Positions 7,109-14,617 are shown, counted from the stretch's first letter. The stretch: DNA of 29,995 nucleotides from a virus (IMGVR_UViG_3300031576_000015:1-29995); one strand, 5' to 3'. Notes: a model not told the origin generated them from the letters alone. A program made the numbers and translations.

Positions 7109-7136
7109 TTGACAAATGGGTTTTCCGTGGTATAAT
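7109..7136 (+). promoter_or_regulatory. sigma70-type promoter P3 for the replication operon
   Basis: TTGACA-16 nt-TATAAT with extended -10, divergent from P2. Confidence 0.9.
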
Positions 7137-7144
7137 GGTGGTAG

Positions 7145-7585
7145 ATGGAGGGAAATGAGCACATGGACAAGACGAAACCGCGAAAAGTTCATGCCCGAAC
7201 CGAGCCACTCCGTGTGTACTTGGCTGGCAATATGGAACTGCCCTGGCGCGCTCCCATAAAGAAGCGTCTCCAGGAGGCGGGAGCCGTAGTCTGGGAGCCC
7301 GCTGACAACCCCCAACAAAGCGCAGCTCTATACGTTCCCCTTGATCTAAAAATGGCTAAAGAGGCCGATGCCATCCTTGCATATGTCCCCAAAGGCCATA
7401 CGGCCCGGGGTACCCATGCCGAGATGGGGGTCGCTTTTGCCGAAGGCCACCCGATTTGGCTAGTCTGGCAGGACCTCCCCTGGGTCTACAGCTTCTCTGC
7501 CGTTATGGCCTACAAGGTCTACACAGAGCTGGAACCTGCTGTCGAGGATCTGCTGAAATTCGTGAAGCGGCGGGTGTTGGACTAA
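7145..7585 (+). CDS. Nucleoside 2-deoxyribosyltransferase / N-glycosidase family protein (Rcl/MilB-like)
   Basis: RVYLAG, DLKMAKEADAILA and GTHAEMGVAFAEGHP with the catalytic Glu; start 7145 or 7163. Confidence 0.85.
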   Translation: MEGNEHMDKTKPRKVHARTEPLRVYLAGNMELPWRAPIKKRLQEAGAVVWEPADNPQQSAALYVPLDLKMAKEADAILAYVPKGHTARGTHAEMGVAFAEGHPIWLVWQDLPWVYSFSAVMAYKVYTELEPAVEDLLKFVKRRVLD

Positions 7586-7679
7586 TGGCTGGCGAATCAC
7601 GCCGATCTTGGGCGGGAAAAAGGTCTTGGACAGGGTCGCCACAAAGGGACGCTCCGGACGCCCTGTGCCCCGCATGGGG

Positions 7680-8123
7680 ATGAACGCCGGTTGGGCAGGC
7701 AGGGGACCCGGTCGCGCGCAAGGTGGCGGCGGGTTAACCACAGGTTATGCGCCTCCAGCGCCTGATGAGACCAATCCTAAAGATCAGGTAGGCATCAAGA
7801 AACCCCGGCTGTACTTAGTGCCGCCGACCAGCATCATCTATCAGGCCCTGGCAATGCAGGACGGGGCGGCGAAATACGGCCCGTACAACTGGCGGGAGAA
7901 GAAGGTTGTTGCCTCCATCTACGTTGACGCGGCTATGCGGCATATCCTGGCCTGGGTAGATGGTGAGGAGGTGGCTCAGGATAGTGGCTATCCTCACCTG
8001 GCCCATGCCCTAGCCTGTCTCGGCATCATTGTCGATGCCCTAGAGACAGGCAATCTGGTTGACGACCGGCCCAAGCCAGGGGCGACGGCAGCTATCCTTG
8101 AGAGGTGGACTAAGAAGATATGA
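7680..8123 (+). CDS. DUF5664-type dATP/dGTP diphosphohydrolase domain protein
   Basis: NPKD..G.KKP.L.LVP, GAAKYGPYNWR, YVDAAMRH..AW.DGEE...DSG.PHLAHA motifs. The start is probably 7680 (ATGA coupling to a 32-aa ORF at 7585-7683); the track starts at 7608. Confidence 0.88.
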   Translation: MNAGWAGRGPGRAQGGGGLTTGYAPPAPDETNPKDQVGIKKPRLYLVPPTSIIYQALAMQDGAAKYGPYNWREKKVVASIYVDAAMRHILAWVDGEEVAQDSGYPHLAHALACLGIIVDALETGNLVDDRPKPGATAAILERWTKKI

Positions 8124-8193: not shown

Positions 8194-8505
8194 TTGGGGT
8201 GTGTCATCAGTAACATCTACGAAGTTGTGTGGAAAGAACATGAGGATCAGCCTTCGGTCACGGAATTGGTAGAGGCAGATCTTGTGGAGCATGCAGGTAA
8301 CATCTTAATCTTCGCCCAAATTGTGGAAGTGCCTACTGGTGAGCCAGAGGTGCATGTAGACCCCGATGAACTTGAGGGCGCTGACCCTCAGGAGATGTCG
8401 TTCTTCAAGAGAAAGAAGGTTGAACGATTACCACAGGTCGTATTCATGCTGCCTATCGCACGAATTGTGAGCGTGCGTAAGATAAAAAAGGTGATTGGCC
8501 ATTAG
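8194..8505 (+). CDS. Acidic hypothetical protein (start uncertain, 8059-8194)
   Basis: Open frame 8059-8505; TTG 8194 sits 2 nt after the stop of a 23-aa ORF coupled to the previous gene. Confidence 0.65.
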   Translation: MGCVISNIYEVVWKEHEDQPSVTELVEADLVEHAGNILIFAQIVEVPTGEPEVHVDPDELEGADPQEMSFFKRKKVERLPQVVFMLPIARIVSVRKIKKVIGH

Positions 8506-8523
8506 GCCCAACGGAGGAGACAC

Positions 8524-9117
8524 ATGAAAGCAACAGATGCTTTTGTCAAGGAGGACGAGCGCAAGGCCCGAGTGGTTGCTCAGGGAGACCGTCCACGGGT
8601 AAAGATTCCCTGGTTCAAGCTTGACGTAAATCAAAGTTCCAAGGTTCGGTTCCTGTGGGAGCTGACCGACGGTATTGGGCTGTTCCGGCACAGCCGTAAT
8701 GAGAAACCCTTTGCCGTGAGCTGTTTCCAGAACGAGGAGTATGTTGGCGACTCTGCTGGTGGGGACTGCCCGTTCTGTACTGAAGGTGCCCGCAAGTCTG
8801 TCGAGTTCTTCTGGATGGTGTACAACTACACCACCCAGCAGGTTGAGATCCTGTCGTTCCGAGACACAGCCTACACTCCAGTGGGTCTGCTTCGTTCCTT
8901 CTTCGAGGAGAACCAGACTGTGACCGACCGAGACTTCACGATCCGGCGCGTCCCGGCTGCTTCGCGTACCGGAGACGGCCGACAGGTATCGTCCTACATG
9001 GCCATCCCCAATGCCCCGTCCGGATTTCTGGTGACAAATCTCCAGGTGCCTGGGTCCGATGACCTGATCAACTACCTGCGGCCGTTTGAGCTTGGTCGTG
9101 GAGAGGGAAAGAACTAA
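8524..9117 (+). CDS. gp32-like single-stranded DNA-binding protein
   Basis: WFKL....KVRFL, H...C...DCPFC Zn motif, TVTDRDFTIRR and SY.AIP; SD GGAGGAG; lies upstream of the polymerase. Confidence 0.8.
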   Translation: MKATDAFVKEDERKARVVAQGDRPRVKIPWFKLDVNQSSKVRFLWELTDGIGLFRHSRNEKPFAVSCFQNEEYVGDSAGGDCPFCTEGARKSVEFFWMVYNYTTQQVEILSFRDTAYTPVGLLRSFFEENQTVTDRDFTIRRVPAASRTGDGRQVSSYMAIPNAPSGFLVTNLQVPGSDDLINYLRPFELGRGEGKN

Positions 9118-9120
9118 TAG

Positions 9121-9276
9121 ATGAAGGCTAGAACGTGCCGGGTCTGTGGGCAGTCTGTCCCGCGTAAGCGGAAGAACAAGAACTACATCCATCCTGCCTG
9201 TCGGCATGTCAAGAGGAGCAAGGTAGCATCCCGTGCTGAGAAGGCGGTAGCCTCGGGCAAGGTAACGAAGACATAA
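9121..9276 (+). CDS. Small basic Zn-finger protein (51 aa; not in ORF track)
   Basis: MKARTCRVCGQSVPRKRKNKNYIHPACRHVKRSKVASRAEKAVASGKVTKT*; CRVC-x14-HPAC; starts 3 nt after the SSB stop. Confidence 0.7.
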   Translation: MKARTCRVCGQSVPRKRKNKNYIHPACRHVKRSKVASRAEKAVASGKVTKT

Positions 9277-9497: not shown

Positions 9498-9651
9498 TGC
9501 AGCGTCGGCTCATGAGTGGAGGGCCTTCATTGAAGGACGTTTCGGTAAGAAAAAGCCTATCCACATGACTGTGGAGGAAATCTCTCTAGTAGTCATGGTT
9601 GACATTCTTGAGGTGCTGGAAGGTATAGCGGCAGCACGTAAGGAGAACTAA
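9490..9651 (+). CDS. Hypothetical protein (53 aa)
   Basis: GGAGG SD, ATG 9490, MSDAASAHEW...RKEN*; TAATG overlap with the polymerase ORF. Confidence 0.7.
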   Translation: MSDAASAHEWRAFIEGRFGKKKPIHMTVEEISLVVMVDILEVLEGIAAARKEN

Positions 9652-12600
9652 TGGCTAGTTGCCCAATTCACCCTGGTTGCCATGCGTATGTGCCGTGGAA
9701 CGGGCCGGAGACAGCCCGTCTTGCCGTAATAGGCGAGGGCCCCGGGGCGCAGGAATTCCAGACCGGCCGACCGTTTGTCGGCCCTGCTGGGCATGTACTC
9801 GATACCGAGCTGGCCCGGGTAGGAATTCCTCGCTCCGAGGTCTTCGCCTACAATGCTGTGCCATGTTTTGGCAACACTATCCCGCGTACCCCTACGGAGA
9901 AAGATCTGAAGGTTTGGCGGCAACACCTCCTGGATAAGCTAATCGAGGTGAAGCCAGAGGTGATCCTCGCCGTTGGCGGGTGGGCGACGGGCGCCATTAT
10001 TGGCAAGCGTCGTATCACAACTGAGCAAGGGGCCGAGCGACGGGTACGACTGGCTCCCGACTACGAGCCTTGGGTCATGCCGTGCTTTCATCCGGCGGCA
10101 ACCCTCCACGACCCAAACAAGAAGCCCGACTTCATCAAGACAATTACCCGTACTGAACAGCTGCTCAATGGTAAGATCGTAGAGTGGTACGCGGGATACA
10201 AGATAGTTGATGATACCACCATTGCCGAGGCCGTGTCCGATCTGTCTGACACGGTTCTGTCCGTAGACATAGAGAGTGCTAAGAGCGAGGTTGTGGTAGT
10301 GGGTCTGGGTAATCCAGGCAGGCCTATTTGGGTCTTCCCAGTTGGGCACCCAGAAGTTGATCCTGCGGTCCAGGCACGGCTTCGTGCCGCTGTTCGTGGC
10401 ATTTTCGATGCTACCATGCGGGATGGAATCCGGGTGATGCACAATGGCAAATACGACACGCAGGCCCTAAAGGCAGAGGGCCTGATGTCTATGGCCGACC
10501 GGGGAGTTGATTGGGATGGGGTGTTGGTGGGCCATCTTCTGGATGAGACACGGGCGGACAAGGGGCGGTTGAAGCTGAAAGTCTTGGGGCAGGAGCTGTT
10601 CGGGATCCAACGGTATTGGACTGTCCCAATCTCGACCATGCACACCGTACAGCAGGGCAAGAAGACCGTTACGAAGCTCGTAGAGGTGCCATTGGATGCT
10701 ATGCTCCGCACTGGTCGGGCACGGGAAGTGCCTCTGGAGACCCTGGCGGAATACAATGCCCGAGATGTGGCCCTGACCCTCATGGTCAAGGATGCCTTTG
10801 ATAAGGACTTTCTGGCCGACCAAAAGTTGGTACGTCTGTACCAGAAGCTGGTTCTGCCGGCGTACCATGCCATGGAGCCTATCGAGAGGGCAGGCCTGCC
10901 TACGGATATGCCGACTTTGCAGAAGTTGGAAGTTGACTACGCTACTGATCTTGCCGGTATTGATGCCGAATTGAACCAGATGTTCTCTGGCGAGGTCAGC
11001 AATTGGAACTCCGACGCCCAGCTTCGCAAGCTGCTATTTGATAAGCTGGGGCTACCCGTTGTCCGGCGCACCACCATCGAAAACGAACCTTCGGTAGATG
11101 TGTCCTCTCTCATGCTACTGAAGGGGAATCACCCCGTCATCGACCTGTTGCTCCGTCGGTCAGAGGCGGACAAGCGGGTGACCACGGTCCAGACCTTGAA
11201 AGACCATATCGCGCCCGATGGTCGCATCCACCCTACCTTCGTAGTGGCCGGCCCTTCGACCGGGCGAACTTCGTCCCGTGACCCGAACGTACAGAATATA
11301 CCTCGGGGGAAGGGCATCCGGGACATCATCCGGGCGCGGCCAGGCTACAAGCTGGTGGAGCTGGACTTCAGTCTCATCGAGCTCCGGTGGGGAGCCCATG
11401 TTTACAATGAGCCGAAGCTGAAGTCCCTGCTCCAACAGGGCAAGGACTTGCACCGCTACACAGCATCGTTGGCCTATGGCAAGCCGATGGATGCCATTTC
11501 TTCTTCGGAGCGTACCCACGGAAAGACGGCCAACTTTCTTCTACTGTACGGTGGTGGCCCGGATAAGCTGTCCACCCATTTGCGGGATAACGGCGTTACC
11601 GAGCTGGAGGCACAGCAGGCTCTGGTGGCTATGGGTCAGATGGCTAATTCTGAAGACCCTATCTATTTCCTGGCCCTGGCGCTGTGGAAGGCGTTCCACC
11701 GGGCCTACCCGGCGCTGAAACCGGCACATGAGATGATCACAAGAGAGATCCGGCGCAACAAGACAGTGCGTACCCTGTTTGGACGGGTCCGTCGTCTACC
11801 TGGGATTGATTCAGCCAATCGCAAGGAAGCGATCCATGCTGCTCTGTCAGGTATCAACACCCTTGTACAGGGACCGGCCAGTGATACGATGCTATTGGCC
11901 TTACCCGGCCTAGTGGAGATGGCACCAAAGTATGGTGCCCTCATTGTGGACGTTGTACATGATGCCGTCCTAGCCGAAGTACCAGAGGACCAGGTCATAC
12001 CCTTCGCCAAGCACGCGAAGCAGATCCTGGAAACCCCCGACTTCGCCCAGTTCGATGTCACCTTTGACATCCCAATTCTGGTCGATGCCAAGGTTGGTCA
12101 TTCGTGGGGATCTCTGAAGGACTTAAGGGAGGAAAGTGAAGTGCCGCAAACATACGAAGTACAAGGCCCTACGGCCACCCCGGACCCGAAGGTTTTGCCA
12201 GAGGCGCCTGTGGAAGTAGAGCAAGCTCTCGAACCCTTCGCTGCGGCTCTGGCTTACCAGGCGCGTGGCTGGTCTGTCATCCAGCTCACGGCCCCAGGGC
12301 AGGGATTCCAGGCCGGAGGAAAGGCCCCGGCCATCAACTGGGAACCCTACCAGCATCGGCATGCCACCATACAGGAGATCCAAGCATGGTTCGGTAAGAG
12401 GGGTGATGGTGGTAATGCCGTACCCCATTCAAAGAATGGCAAGCACAACATTGGCATCGTTACGGGGTCCGTCTCGAAGCTAGTGGTCATTGACATCGAC
12501 CCGAAGAAGGGCGGACTGGACTGGTTGAAGGAGAAGAACCTCACGTCGCCTGCCACAGTACGAACTGGCGGCGACGGTCTGCATCTTTATTTCCACTATG

Positions 12601-13907
12601 AGGGGCCGCCCCTGACTAACCGAGCGGGAATGGCGCCGGGTGTGGACATAAGGGCCGAGGGCGGGCAAGTGGCCGCGCCGCCGAGCCTGCACCAGTCGGG
12701 CAAGCGGTACGTCTGGCTGACCCCGGATGGGCTATTGCCGGCAGAACTGCCGGAGCTGCCGGTGTGGTTGGCCGAGGAAATCAAGACTCGGGCCAACGTG
12801 CAGGCGGTCCCGATATCGGGCGAGGGCCGTAACATCCCGCCGGCGCGTATCGACGAGGTGGTGGATCAACTACTGCCCTACTACGTCGAAGGTCGGCGCC
12901 ACGACATGCAACTGGCCCTGGCCGGGTTTCTGGCCAAGCGCAACTACCAGATGGCCGACGTGGAGGATTTGGTGATTCGGCTGGCCAATGCGGCTGAGGA
13001 CACCGGTGAACTCAACGACCGTCTGATGGTTGTGCGGGATACCTATCGGAAGGTGACGGTTGGCGAGACCGTTGCTGGGAGTGACAAGCTGCGGGACTAC
13101 CTGCCAGCCGATGCACTGGACCGGCTCCTCGAGCTGTTTGGTTCTCTTAGGAAGGTGGGCGTTATCGAGGTTATGCACGGCCCAGATTTCGTTGCGAAGA
13201 AGCGGGAAGAGGTGAGCTGGCTCATTGATAAGCTGCTTCCAACGGCCGGTATTTGGATGATGTCAGGCCACCCTGGGGCCGGCAAGACGACCCTGGCTCT
13301 GCAGTTTGCCTTCAGTCTGGCCGCCGGTATGGACCTATGGGGATTGTACGCGGTCCCGAAGGCTGTGAAGGTGTTGTATCTCCAGGCCGACAACCCGCCC
13401 CACATGTTCGAGGACCTGGTTCGTCGGTTGTCACAGCGGATGCCAGGGGCCCTGGCCAACATGTACTTCTCCAATGTCACCAAGTCCATCAAAGTCAACA
13501 CTGAGCAGGGCTATGAAACTATGCGCCAGCTGGTTGAGCTGTATACCCCGGACATGATCCTTCTTGACACCATCCGGGATTTCCATAGTGCTAACGAAAA
13601 CGACCCCACGGCCGTGGCGGAAACATTGGATGCCTTGAAGTCGATCCGGGGTAACCGGTCGATCTCCGTCGGGTTCATCCATCACCACTCTAAGGGATCG
13701 GCTACTGAACGCATGCAGATAGAGAAGCACATGGGATCGATGCGGTTCGTCACCCCGGTGGACCTATCCATGTCCCTGACCTTCGATGAGAAGGAGATGG
13801 GCTATGTCATCCTACGGTTCACCAAGATTCGATGGGCGGCTGGGCAGCAGCCCGTAACTCTGCAACGGAGGGACAACTGGTACGAACACGTTGGCGGGGG
13901 TGTGTAA
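9651..13907 (+). CDS. Fused replication protein: family-4 UDG + 3'-5' exonuclease + family-A DNA polymerase + PrimPol + PriCT + AAA_25 helicase (1418 aa)
   Basis: UDG: GEGPG..E...G.PFVG.AG and HPAA. Exo I/II/III: SVDIES, HNGKYD, YNARD. PolA A/B/C: DFSLIELR, RTHGKTANF...YG, VHD. PrimPol: VVIDID, GLHLYF, DIRAEGGQVAAPPS. PriCT: EGRRHD..LALAG. Helicase: GHPGAGKT, ILLD. Confidence 0.93.
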   Translation: MASCPIHPGCHAYVPWNGPETARLAVIGEGPGAQEFQTGRPFVGPAGHVLDTELARVGIPRSEVFAYNAVPCFGNTIPRTPTEKDLKVWRQHLLDKLIEVKPEVILAVGGWATGAIIGKRRITTEQGAERRVRLAPDYEPWVMPCFHPAATLHDPNKKPDFIKTITRTEQLLNGKIVEWYAGYKIVDDTTIAEAVSDLSDTVLSVDIESAKSEVVVVGLGNPGRPIWVFPVGHPEVDPAVQARLRAAVRGIFDATMRDGIRVMHNGKYDTQALKAEGLMSMADRGVDWDGVLVGHLLDETRADKGRLKLKVLGQELFGIQRYWTVPISTMHTVQQGKKTVTKLVEVPLDAMLRTGRAREVPLETLAEYNARDVALTLMVKDAFDKDFLADQKLVRLYQKLVLPAYHAMEPIERAGLPTDMPTLQKLEVDYATDLAGIDAELNQMFSGEVSNWNSDAQLRKLLFDKLGLPVVRRTTIENEPSVDVSSLMLLKGNHPVIDLLLRRSEADKRVTTVQTLKDHIAPDGRIHPTFVVAGPSTGRTSSRDPNVQNIPRGKGIRDIIRARPGYKLVELDFSLIELRWGAHVYNEPKLKSLLQQGKDLHRYTASLAYGKPMDAISSSERTHGKTANFLLLYGGGPDKLSTHLRDNGVTELEAQQALVAMGQMANSEDPIYFLALALWKAFHRAYPALKPAHEMITREIRRNKTVRTLFGRVRRLPGIDSANRKEAIHAALSGINTLVQGPASDTMLLALPGLVEMAPKYGALIVDVVHDAVLAEVPEDQVIPFAKHAKQILETPDFAQFDVTFDIPILVDAKVGHSWGSLKDLREESEVPQTYEVQGPTATPDPKVLPEAPVEVEQALEPFAAALAYQARGWSVIQLTAPGQGFQAGGKAPAINWEPYQHRHATIQEIQAWFGKRGDGGNAVPHSKNGKHNIGIVTGSVSKLVVIDIDPKKGGLDWLKEKNLTSPATVRTGGDGLHLYFHYEGPPLTNRAGMAPGVDIRAEGGQVAAPPSLHQSGKRYVWLTPDGLLPAELPELPVWLAEEIKTRANVQAVPISGEGRNIPPARIDEVVDQLLPYYVEGRRHDMQLALAGFLAKRNYQMADVEDLVIRLANAAEDTGELNDRLMVVRDTYRKVTVGETVAGSDKLRDYLPADALDRLLELFGSLRKVGVIEVMHGPDFVAKKREEVSWLIDKLLPTAGIWMMSGHPGAGKTTLALQFAFSLAAGMDLWGLYAVPKAVKVLYLQADNPPHMFEDLVRRLSQRMPGALANMYFSNVTKSIKVNTEQGYETMRQLVELYTPDMILLDTIRDFHSANENDPTAVAETLDALKSIRGNRSISVGFIHHHSKGSATERMQIEKHMGSMRFVTPVDLSMSLTFDEKEMGYVILRFTKIRWAAGQQPVTLQRRDNWYEHVGGGV

Positions 13908-14493: not shown

Positions 14494-14575
14494 CGCCCAA
14501 GGGCGATCCCGCCAAGCTGGCGGGATTCCTGGCGGGATCCTCGATTTAAAAACAAAAGACTAGGCTTTCGCCTAG
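14494..14575. repeat. Cluster of inverted and direct repeats
   Basis: CGCCC-AA-GGGCG (14494-14505); GATCCCGCCA (14505-14514) complementary to both 14518-14527 and 14530-14539; CTAGGC-TTTC-GCCTAG (14560-14575). Confidence 0.7.
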
Positions 14576-14589
14576 CCATTTATGATTGC

Positions 14590-14617
14590 AGCCACTCGTG
14601 AGGGTGGCTTTTCTATT
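14590..14617 (+). terminator. Intrinsic terminator at the convergence of the replication and virion operons
   Basis: AGCCACTC-GTGA-GGGTGGCT stem (one G-U pair, GNRA loop) followed by TTTCTATT. Confidence 0.8.

Follow-up and report, generated by a model that had tools for sequence, protein, structure and literature searches.

UDG-PolAs, which join a uracil-DNA glycosylase (UDG) to a DNA polymerase of the PolA family, are already known, with SPO1-like and SP15-like examples (Czernecki et al. 2023, PMC10201439; Missoury et al. 2026, PMC13697223; PDB 9QHS), and for those of YerA41 and phiLo the UDG domain has been reported to scan the template ahead of the polymerase site (PMC13697223). Primase-helicases that combine an archaeo-eukaryotic primase (AEP) and a PriCT domain with a helicase of the RepA/DnaB kind are known as well (Kazlauskas et al. 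2018, PMC5862659), and so are PolA replicases made as one chain, which include PREX (Toprim-helicase-exonuclease-PolA), the hot-spring polyproteins, and the AEP-PolA of cluster #8 (PMC10201439). Helicase, AEP primase, polymerase, and 3'-5' exonuclease have been shown experimentally in one protein, GP55 of lactococcal phage 1706 (PMC12205980). The idea of a one-gene replisome is itself already known, and the gene described here, P0001 of the virus IMGVR_UViG_3300031576_000015, is a rare version of it in which the order is reversed. The stretch that we analyzed (hereafter the window) makes up the initial 29,995 nt of a phage genome that is complete at 93,995 nt and has direct terminal repeats (IMG/VR record), and the sample carrying this DNA is a cave metagenome. 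We consider it probable that P0001 is a genuine and conserved phage replicase gene, which joins a UDG-exonuclease-PolA module and a PrimPol-PriCT-RepA-like module by a disordered tether and works by a T7-like mechanism.

The open reading frame (ORF) is preceded by a Shine-Dalgarno (SD) sequence, and its modules lie as follows (window positions; aa, amino acid residues of P0001; E, E-value):

9639-9645, + strand: SD sequence TAAGGAG, 5 nt before the ATG, with a duplex energy of -9.2 kcal/mol with a generic anti-SD

9651-13907, + strand: replicase ORF (P0001), 1418 codons, open throughout

9651-10160, + strand: family-4 UDG domain, aa 1-170 (PF03167, E 4e-21, aa 17-164; Thermus UDGA 1UI0, E 2e-20)

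10218-10850, + strand: DEDDy 3'-5' exonuclease, aa ~190-400 (motifs D206/E208, N265/D269, Y368/D372)

10848-12119, + strand: PolA domain, aa ~400-823 (PF00476, E 3e-69, aa 422-~830)

12126-12230, + strand: Pro/Glu-rich linker, aa 826-860 (~35 residues), variable among relatives

12231-12791, + strand: Prim-Pol (AEP) catalytic domain, aa 861-1047 (PF09250, E 9e-30, aa 866-1039)

12840-13139, + strand: helical bundle, PriCT-1-like, aa 1064-1163, all-helical in both models

13179-13907, + strand: RepA-like helicase of superfamily 4 (SF4, RecA fold), aa ~1177-1418, with the stop codon (PF13481, AAA_25, E 4e-28, aa 1180-1350)

The single uninterrupted 1418-aa frame claimed by the initial annotation was borne out, and its ATG start is backed by the upstream SD sequence and by the N-termini of relatives, which align from residue 1. 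As for the domains listed in that annotation, UDG, PolA, Prim-Pol, and helicase were found by Pfam, whereas the exonuclease and PriCT matches remained below threshold in P0001.

Compared with UDG-PolAs whose UDG is catalytically intact, such as those of YerA41 and phiLo, the N-terminal 825 residues of P0001 share the order UDG-DEDDy exonuclease-PolA as well as the GEGPG and HPA motifs. However, those enzymes stop at the PolA C-terminus or after a short C-terminal domain and have their primase-helicase in trans, whereas P0001 runs on for 593 residues, and its genome is without the thymidylate-synthase-like and dUTPase genes that are linked to T-modified genomes. PDB 9QHS matches P0001 weakly, in the UDG part (E 2e-4). 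At the other end, the C-terminal 560 residues align over 84-97% of their length with stand-alone Prim-Pol-PriCT_1-AAA_25 proteins, which occur in phages, plasmids, and integrated elements, and identity to the C-terminal half is 49% for P0061, 32% for P0065, and 26-30% for P0205-P0212. Unlike these proteins, the P0001 module lacks a gene-level start and follows a polymerase in the same frame, and its PriCT-1 region has diverged. PREX, the hot-spring polyproteins, the cluster #8 protein, and the metagenomic protein P0163 (Prim-Pol, PriCT_1, AAA_25, exonuclease, and PolA in one chain, the same Pfam families in the opposite order) also put primase, helicase, proofreading exonuclease, and PolA in one chain, but their polymerase is C-terminal, they carry no UDG, and their PolA domains are ~30-33% identical and belong to other PolA groups. 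In P0163 and in another metagenomic protein of opposite order, P0093 (RepB-primase, AAA_25, exonuclease, and PolA in one chain), modules of the same kinds were fused independently. In PREX-type polyproteins the primase-helicase is N-terminal, whereas in P0001 UDG-exonuclease-PolA comes first, and the fact that the nearest sequences are UDG-exonuclease-PolA phage enzymes argues against membership of the Aquificae-like "Hot Spring 1" PolA cluster. GP55 is the sole replication protein of its genome, as P0001 is the only recognizable polymerase, primase, and replicative helicase of its own, but GP55 consists of an SF3 helicase, an AEP, and a family B polymerase without UDG, it is a dimer by size-exclusion chromatography with multi-angle light scattering, and its polymerase and helicase classes are not homologous to those of P0001. 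With T7 gp4-gp5 the logic is shared, in that a PolA-family polymerase is served by an SF4 helicase, in P0001 a putative ring, that carries its primase at the N-terminus, yet the T7 contact is non-covalent and its primase is of the DnaG/Toprim class, while P0001 has a peptide tether and an AEP Prim-Pol. Distant relatives of the L015 type have a gp4-like Zn-ribbon-Toprim-helicase gene beside the PolA gene.

A PolA placed N-terminal to a PrimPol-helicase, together with a UDG, is not described in PMC10201439, PMC13697223, PMC5862659, or PMC12205980. The order that the initial annotation did not recognize is also undescribed in these papers on PolA, UDG-PolA, AEP, and GP55, but it is not singular, since it belongs to a family of about nine genes, and other one-polypeptide replicases exist (P0163, GP55, and PREX). 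What is new is that the order is reversed, that a UDG-PolA is linked to an AEP/SF4 module, and that adjacent, fused, and re-split genes are documented as a series.

That the fusion is real is supported by eight further fused genes of 37-65% identity in independent metagenomes. P0002, P0003, P0004, and P0005 (5'-truncated), found by a word-indexed search, have the same architecture at 41-47% identity; their contigs derive from NCBI, Logan, and JGI samples, and P0004, read on four contigs, came out the same in the assemblies of three runs. The gene of L013 (IMG/VR) is 62-65% identical, and its 1411-codon frame leaves the contig at its end. P0058, P0059, and P0060 were added by an exhaustive HMMER pass with residues 400-1418 against 1.84 billion cluster representatives, of which only 6 matched polymerase, primase, and helicase jointly, the remaining strong matches being polymerase-only or primase-helicase-only. 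The fusion was found in none of 50,697 GenBank phage records, none of which covers at least 80% of P0001; the best GenBank phage match to the C-terminal half has 23.6% identity over 92% of the query. These searches yielded nine fused genes in all, P0001 included, and six spanning cluster representatives, and the fused family is real yet rare. In the probable source sample, a Logan contig (53.9 kb, depth ~31) matches the ORF over its full length, with neither a difference nor a gap. Independent fused relatives and an identical second assembly together exclude a spurious fusion for practical purposes. The stop or indel at the Pol/PrimPol junction that the initial annotation had envisaged is present neither in the fused relatives nor in the Logan contig, although one relative, L093, does have separate genes. 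At window position 11463, a G>A difference was seen in one low-depth contig (depth 2.7) from a second run of the same sample; it may be a minor variant or simply an error.

In P0001 every module has readable catalytic residues, and these are conserved among relatives. Those of the UDG domain are G28-E-G-P-G32, F42, N68, and H147, and its GEGPG, PFVG, N68, and F146-H147-P-A align with 1UI0. Motifs A (GE[AG]PG) and B (HPx), the marks of the "active" subgroup, are kept in P0001 and in the full-length fused relatives, and by these motifs the domain is apparently active. A CPxHxxxC element and a later Cys (C4, H7, C10, and C72; window 9660-9680 and 9864-9866) are kept in all relatives; because the fourth Cys position of Thermus UDGA is missing, the usual 4Fe-4S site may be altered to Cys3-His. 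The exonuclease match in P0001 is below threshold (PF01612, E 0.0098), and the domain is called in relatives, where its residues are conserved. PHROG 17 "DNA polymerase" spans aa 19-830, and the PolA motifs D572, K625/F629/Y633, and H770-D771 align with those of Taq. The nearest non-fused sequences are UDG-exonuclease-PolA proteins with 25-30% identity. P0140 and P0048 are UDG-PolAs with intein domains.

In the second half of the chain, the Prim-Pol motifs are D948-x-D950, H978, and D999; across 27 aligned sequences D950 and D999 are invariant, D948 is conserved, and H978 is present in at least 90%. The AlphaFold2 (AF2) model of the Prim-Pol domain and the bundle has a pLDDT (predicted local distance difference test) of 91, and in a Foldseek search it retrieved the pRN1 ORF904 primase on top (E 8e-9), followed by NrS-1, CAPP, and RepB'. 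The pRN1 ORF904 alignments cover ~350 columns and include the helix-bundle domain of pRN1, and a PDB sequence search with the PrimPol/PriCT part gave no match. Significant PriCT_1 matches in the aligned homologues P0065, P0205, P0206, and P0212 fall on aa 1074-1136 of P0001, which supports the bundle indirectly as PriCT-1-like rather than as a proven PriCT_1. The helicase motifs are G1209-x-G-K1212-T (GAGKT), D1247, D1306, and H1344-H1345-x-SK, and RSF1010 RepA (1G8Y) matches with E 2e-12, its GAGKT, LDT.R.FH, and HH.SKG segments being aligned; the Foldseek comparison of the helicase domain with RepA gave template modeling (TM) scores of 0.75-0.78. When three copies of the helicase domain were predicted together, the interface score ipSAE was 0.50 against 0.00 for the best control, which may reflect likeness to solved RepA hexamers. 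Among proteins solved as one-chain pairs, 20 of 30 reach this ipSAE mark, compared with 1 of 23 whose solved form is a single chain. At least 60% of the contacts were common to the runs, the partner pLDDT was at least 74, and in the predicted interface an N-terminal segment (aa ~1167-1186) docks on the RecA core of the neighbour. Because RepA hexamers have already been solved, this three-copy result shows likeness rather than proof of a ring.

At the junction between the halves, the PolA part of P0001 aligns to the final residues of Taq Pol I, of the free UDG-PolA of L015, and of the separate UDG-PolA P0063, and this alignment to free PolA C-termini places the end of the PolA module at aa ~823-825, while the free primase-helicase P0061 starts at the equivalent of aa ~838. 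The intervening linker is about 15-61 aa long across relatives, its sequence is not alignable, and it is predicted to be disordered, with an AF2 pLDDT below 50 for aa 826-858 (model residues 1-33) in a model whose mean is 85. The linker DNA was also considered as a replication origin, and this was rejected, as iterons and an AT-rich dip are both missing from the region 11600-12700 (GC 0.50-0.65) and its repeats do not exceed chance size.

How the two halves came together is suggested by relatives at different distances. In distant UDG-PolA phages (L015, L016, L019, L020, and L033; 28% identity) the PolA gene is followed by a Zn-ribbon-Toprim-AAA_25 gene, and the PolA stop overlaps the primase-helicase start (TAATG) in L015 (8428-8432), L016, L019, and L020, with a similar arrangement in L033. 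The same order in distant adjacent genes indicates that polymerase-then-primase-helicase predates the fusion, and from this we infer that P0001 originated by fusion of two adjacent genes. Judged by domain content, the primase class is exchanged, with Toprim in the distant relatives and Prim-Pol here. In L093, the halves are separate genes, P0063 (UDG-PolA, 915 aa) and P0061 (PrimPol-AAA_25, 577 aa), which are 43% and 49-51% identical to the respective halves of P0001. Between them (L093 4541-5526) are three small ORFs of 65, 70, and 190 aa, with no Pfam match on record and no homologue in the other loci compared. The maximum likelihood tree of the polymerase half places L093 inside the fused clade (ultrafast bootstrap/SH-aLRT 97/97), with P0059 and P0058+P0060 branching earlier, and a fused-only clade without L093 was rejected by the approximately unbiased test (p 0.006). 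For the primase-helicase half, L093 is in the same 100/100 clade, where the branching order is unsettled (p 0.15). Since L093 is nested in the fused clade, its separate genes represent a secondary split, and one fusion followed by one insertion-mediated fission is the most parsimonious history. Four other IMG/VR loci (L021, L022, L027, and L029) show a polymerase match over ~4.6 kb in two consecutive ORFs of ~760 aa each; polymerase-like genes in tandem, or one polymerase that is split or carries an intein, may account for this.

The genome around P0001 is organized as follows (window positions unless stated):

7018-6991, - strand: perfect promoter, the mirror image of and divergent from the one at 7109-7136

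7109-7136, + strand: sigma-70-like promoter TTGACA-16-TATAAT with TG, 12/12 matches, heading the rightward replicase operon

8524-9117, + strand: SSB-like (single-stranded DNA-binding protein) gene, 197 aa (PHROG 14578 "single strand DNA binding protein", E 7e-7)

14558-14609, no strand assigned: back-to-back terminator-like hairpins, closing the rightward operon

L011 622-1464 and 13657-14541 (genome 70622-71464 and 83657-84541): ATP-dependent DNA ligase and Ku

The divergent promoters sit in a 490-nt gap between a leftward recA operon and the rightward replicase operon, and the cumulative GC skew minimum falls in the same gap. No + strand promoter-like site was found within the replicase ORF. 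The rightward operon runs from a nucleoside deoxyribosyltransferase-like gene through a MazZ-like dATP/dGTP diphosphohydrolase gene and the SSB-like gene to the replicase, the first two (nucleoside 2-deoxyribosyltransferase-like and MazZ-like) lying at window 7145-8123 on the + strand. Homologues of the SSB-like gene, found by tblastn, are directly upstream of the replicase in L013, L003, L004, L095, L002, and L093. An overlapping ORF at 8428-9207 on the - strand is longer than the SSB-like gene, has no family match, and is probably spurious. Genome-wide, there was no DnaB_C, Helicase_C/SF2 helicase, PolB, or Toprim match and no second AAA_25 above the cut-off, and the other large ORFs encode RecA, RuvC, an RNase H-like protein, an ATP-dependent ligase, Ku, nucleases, and unrelated functions. 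As far as domain searches can tell, P0001 is the sole recognizable polymerase, primase, and replicative helicase of the genome. To speak of a whole replisome in one chain, as was done initially, is nevertheless an overstatement, because the SSB-like protein, RecA, RuvC, and the ligase are encoded by separate genes. The ligase could close base-excision repair begun by the UDG domain. Two kinds of modified genome were considered and rejected: a Z-genome (2-aminoadenine), prompted by the MazZ-like gene, as the genome contains no PurZ, and a T-hypermodified genome, prompted by the active-type UDG, as it contains neither a thymidylate-synthase-like gene nor a dUTPase gene. One auxiliary gene is unusual for a phage (L011 10418-11371, genome 80418-81371, + strand): its product of 317 aa contains the inner-membrane permease domain of ABC transporters (BPD_transp_1, E 1.5e-24).

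The linker also contains a candidate translation start:

12124-12143, + strand: TAAGGGAGG, 8 nt, then an in-frame GTG (codon 831), candidate internal start of a free 588-aa primase-helicase

All in-frame ATG, GTG, and TTG codons were scored by the duplex energy of the upstream 15 nt with a generic anti-SD, the anti-SD of the host being assumed. At -11.3 kcal/mol, the linker site of the window is the best of 101 in-frame start-like codons in the ORF, and it beats the gene's own SD (-9.2) and ~95% of the genome's gene starts. The corresponding site ranks 1/93 in L013 and 1/92 in L094, and ranks 2-4 in L002, L095, and L003. In these six genes with a signal, equal-sized windows elsewhere in the same ORFs match the linker in 0-9% of cases, and shuffling of the linker codons gave P values from 0.004 to 0.10, the lineages not being independent. 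Conservation of Val831 was rejected as evidence for an internal start, since the residue is invariant in five sequences but encoded by GTG only in the window (GTA/GTC elsewhere). The SD and start in the linker may yield polymerase-free subunits, and a free 588-aa primase-helicase product is plausible, although we stop short of expecting it.

If such initiation were dominant, the ORF would mainly co-express separate enzymes, through GTG831 and/or proteolysis, and the full-length form would be minor or transient. T7 gene 4 gives two in-frame products, and an SD-preceded start in the linker of 16-62 codons that ranks top or second to fourth of the whole ORF in six genes, an internal SD stronger than the gene's own in the window, and a split relative, L093, that works with separate genes would all fit co-expression. 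However, internal initiation frees the primase-helicase and no stand-alone PolA, so that the full-length form continues to be produced; neither a protease site nor a dedicated protease is apparent; L004 and L007 are without the linker start signal; and the signals come from lineages that are not independent, with an assumed host anti-SD. Moreover, nine diverged genes have kept the frame open although the linker itself is not conserved, and this speaks for selection on the joined product. We therefore regard predominant co-expression as improbable, though it is the most serious competitor to a joined replicase.

For the joined replicase, we propose a mechanism modeled on what is generally known of RepA, T7 gp4, and DnaB and on the UDG-PolA work of PMC13697223. 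By analogy, the C-terminal RecA-fold domains would assemble into a ring travelling 5'->3' along the template of the lagging strand, and the PrimPol domain and helical bundle on its trailing face would synthesize primers. The tethered PolA would take these primers directly, and the PolA of another subunit could serve the leading strand. The UDG domain, as in the YerA41 and phiLo UDG-PolAs, would inspect the template ahead of the polymerase site, while the ligase would finish repair and join Okazaki fragments. The covalent link would replace the non-covalent gp4-gp5 contacts of T7 and keep spare polymerases at the fork, and internally initiated polymerase-free subunits would give mixed rings and limit the polymerase load. 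The figure of up to six polymerases per fork given in the initial annotation depends on a putative ring, for which likeness to RSF1010 RepA and a structure prediction speak. A bolder version remains speculative, and we hold it to be on the unlikely side: a natural replisome held together covalently, with as many as six UDG-proofreading PolAs tethered to one SF4 ring and their number tuned by initiation in the linker. This would be the first PolA-primase-helicase order, with the polymerase on the primase face for direct primer hand-off, and the single product would be sufficient for primer-independent, uracil-scanning strand-displacement synthesis.

Another explanation is that the PrimPol-helicase half is a damage-tolerance module, which re-primes at or bypasses the abasic sites made by the UDG while the host DnaB unwinds the fork. 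Re-priming after lesions is a property of Prim-Pol enzymes, human PrimPol among them. The abasic sites that active UDG-PolAs make lie ahead of the polymerase and call for downstream repair (PMC13697223), and genes for an ATP-dependent ligase, Ku, and RecA are also present in the phage. Nevertheless, the helicase belongs to the replicative RepA/DnaB/gp4 class, in related UDG-PolA phages the corresponding position beside the polymerase is taken by a Toprim primase-helicase of the classical type, the genome has no further recognizable primase or helicase, and Prim-Pol-PriCT-RepA proteins are the usual replication initiators and primases of mobile elements (PMC5862659), all of which makes damage tolerance very unlikely. 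Finally, an erased stop codon between two genes, by sequencing or assembly error, can be dismissed almost outright: although the window stems from a metagenome assembly supported by contigs rather than raw reads, and the second run of the sample leaves 12082-12227 uncovered, nine fused genes from different samples, studies, and assemblers each have an open but non-alignable linker, P0004 is the same in three runs, and the ~31x Logan contig is identical across the ORF.

Several observations weigh against a fused, T7-like replicase. Motif C of the PolA domain is HDA and not HDE; however, HD[AS] occurs at this motif in 51 of 157 related phage PolA sequences scanned, which makes HDA a clade trait with no sign of decay. 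The PriCT_1 match (PF08708) in P0001 is below threshold, with E 0.17 and 11.9 bits against a cut-off of 21.1. The four-in-one replicase GP55 is a dimer and not a hexamer (PMC12205980), so the stoichiometry of a ring cannot be assumed. The split in L093 shows that the halves can work in trans and that the fusion is dispensable, and its benefit may be small. As to the internal start, two of the eight fused genes scored (L004 and L007) have no notable signal in the linker, and the sites sit at different positions between genes, which means that they are not simply inherited; the signal could stem from the purine-rich codons of the linker or be the relic of a ribosome-binding site.

Should the activities of P0001 be confirmed, an enzyme from a single gene would be attractive for isothermal amplification that is helicase-driven and needs no primers. 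The combination of an apparently active UDG with a proofreading PolA and a Prim-Pol in the same chain also bears on replication-coupled uracil repair, which was recently shown for UDG-PolAs. What normally keeps a replisome together are weak, exchangeable contacts, and natural fusions show which of these contacts can become permanent. One lineage here offers three states, namely fused (nine genes), secondarily split (L093), and ancestral-like adjacent (L015 type), and this set can therefore be used to test what tethering gains in processivity, primer hand-off, and polymerase exchange.

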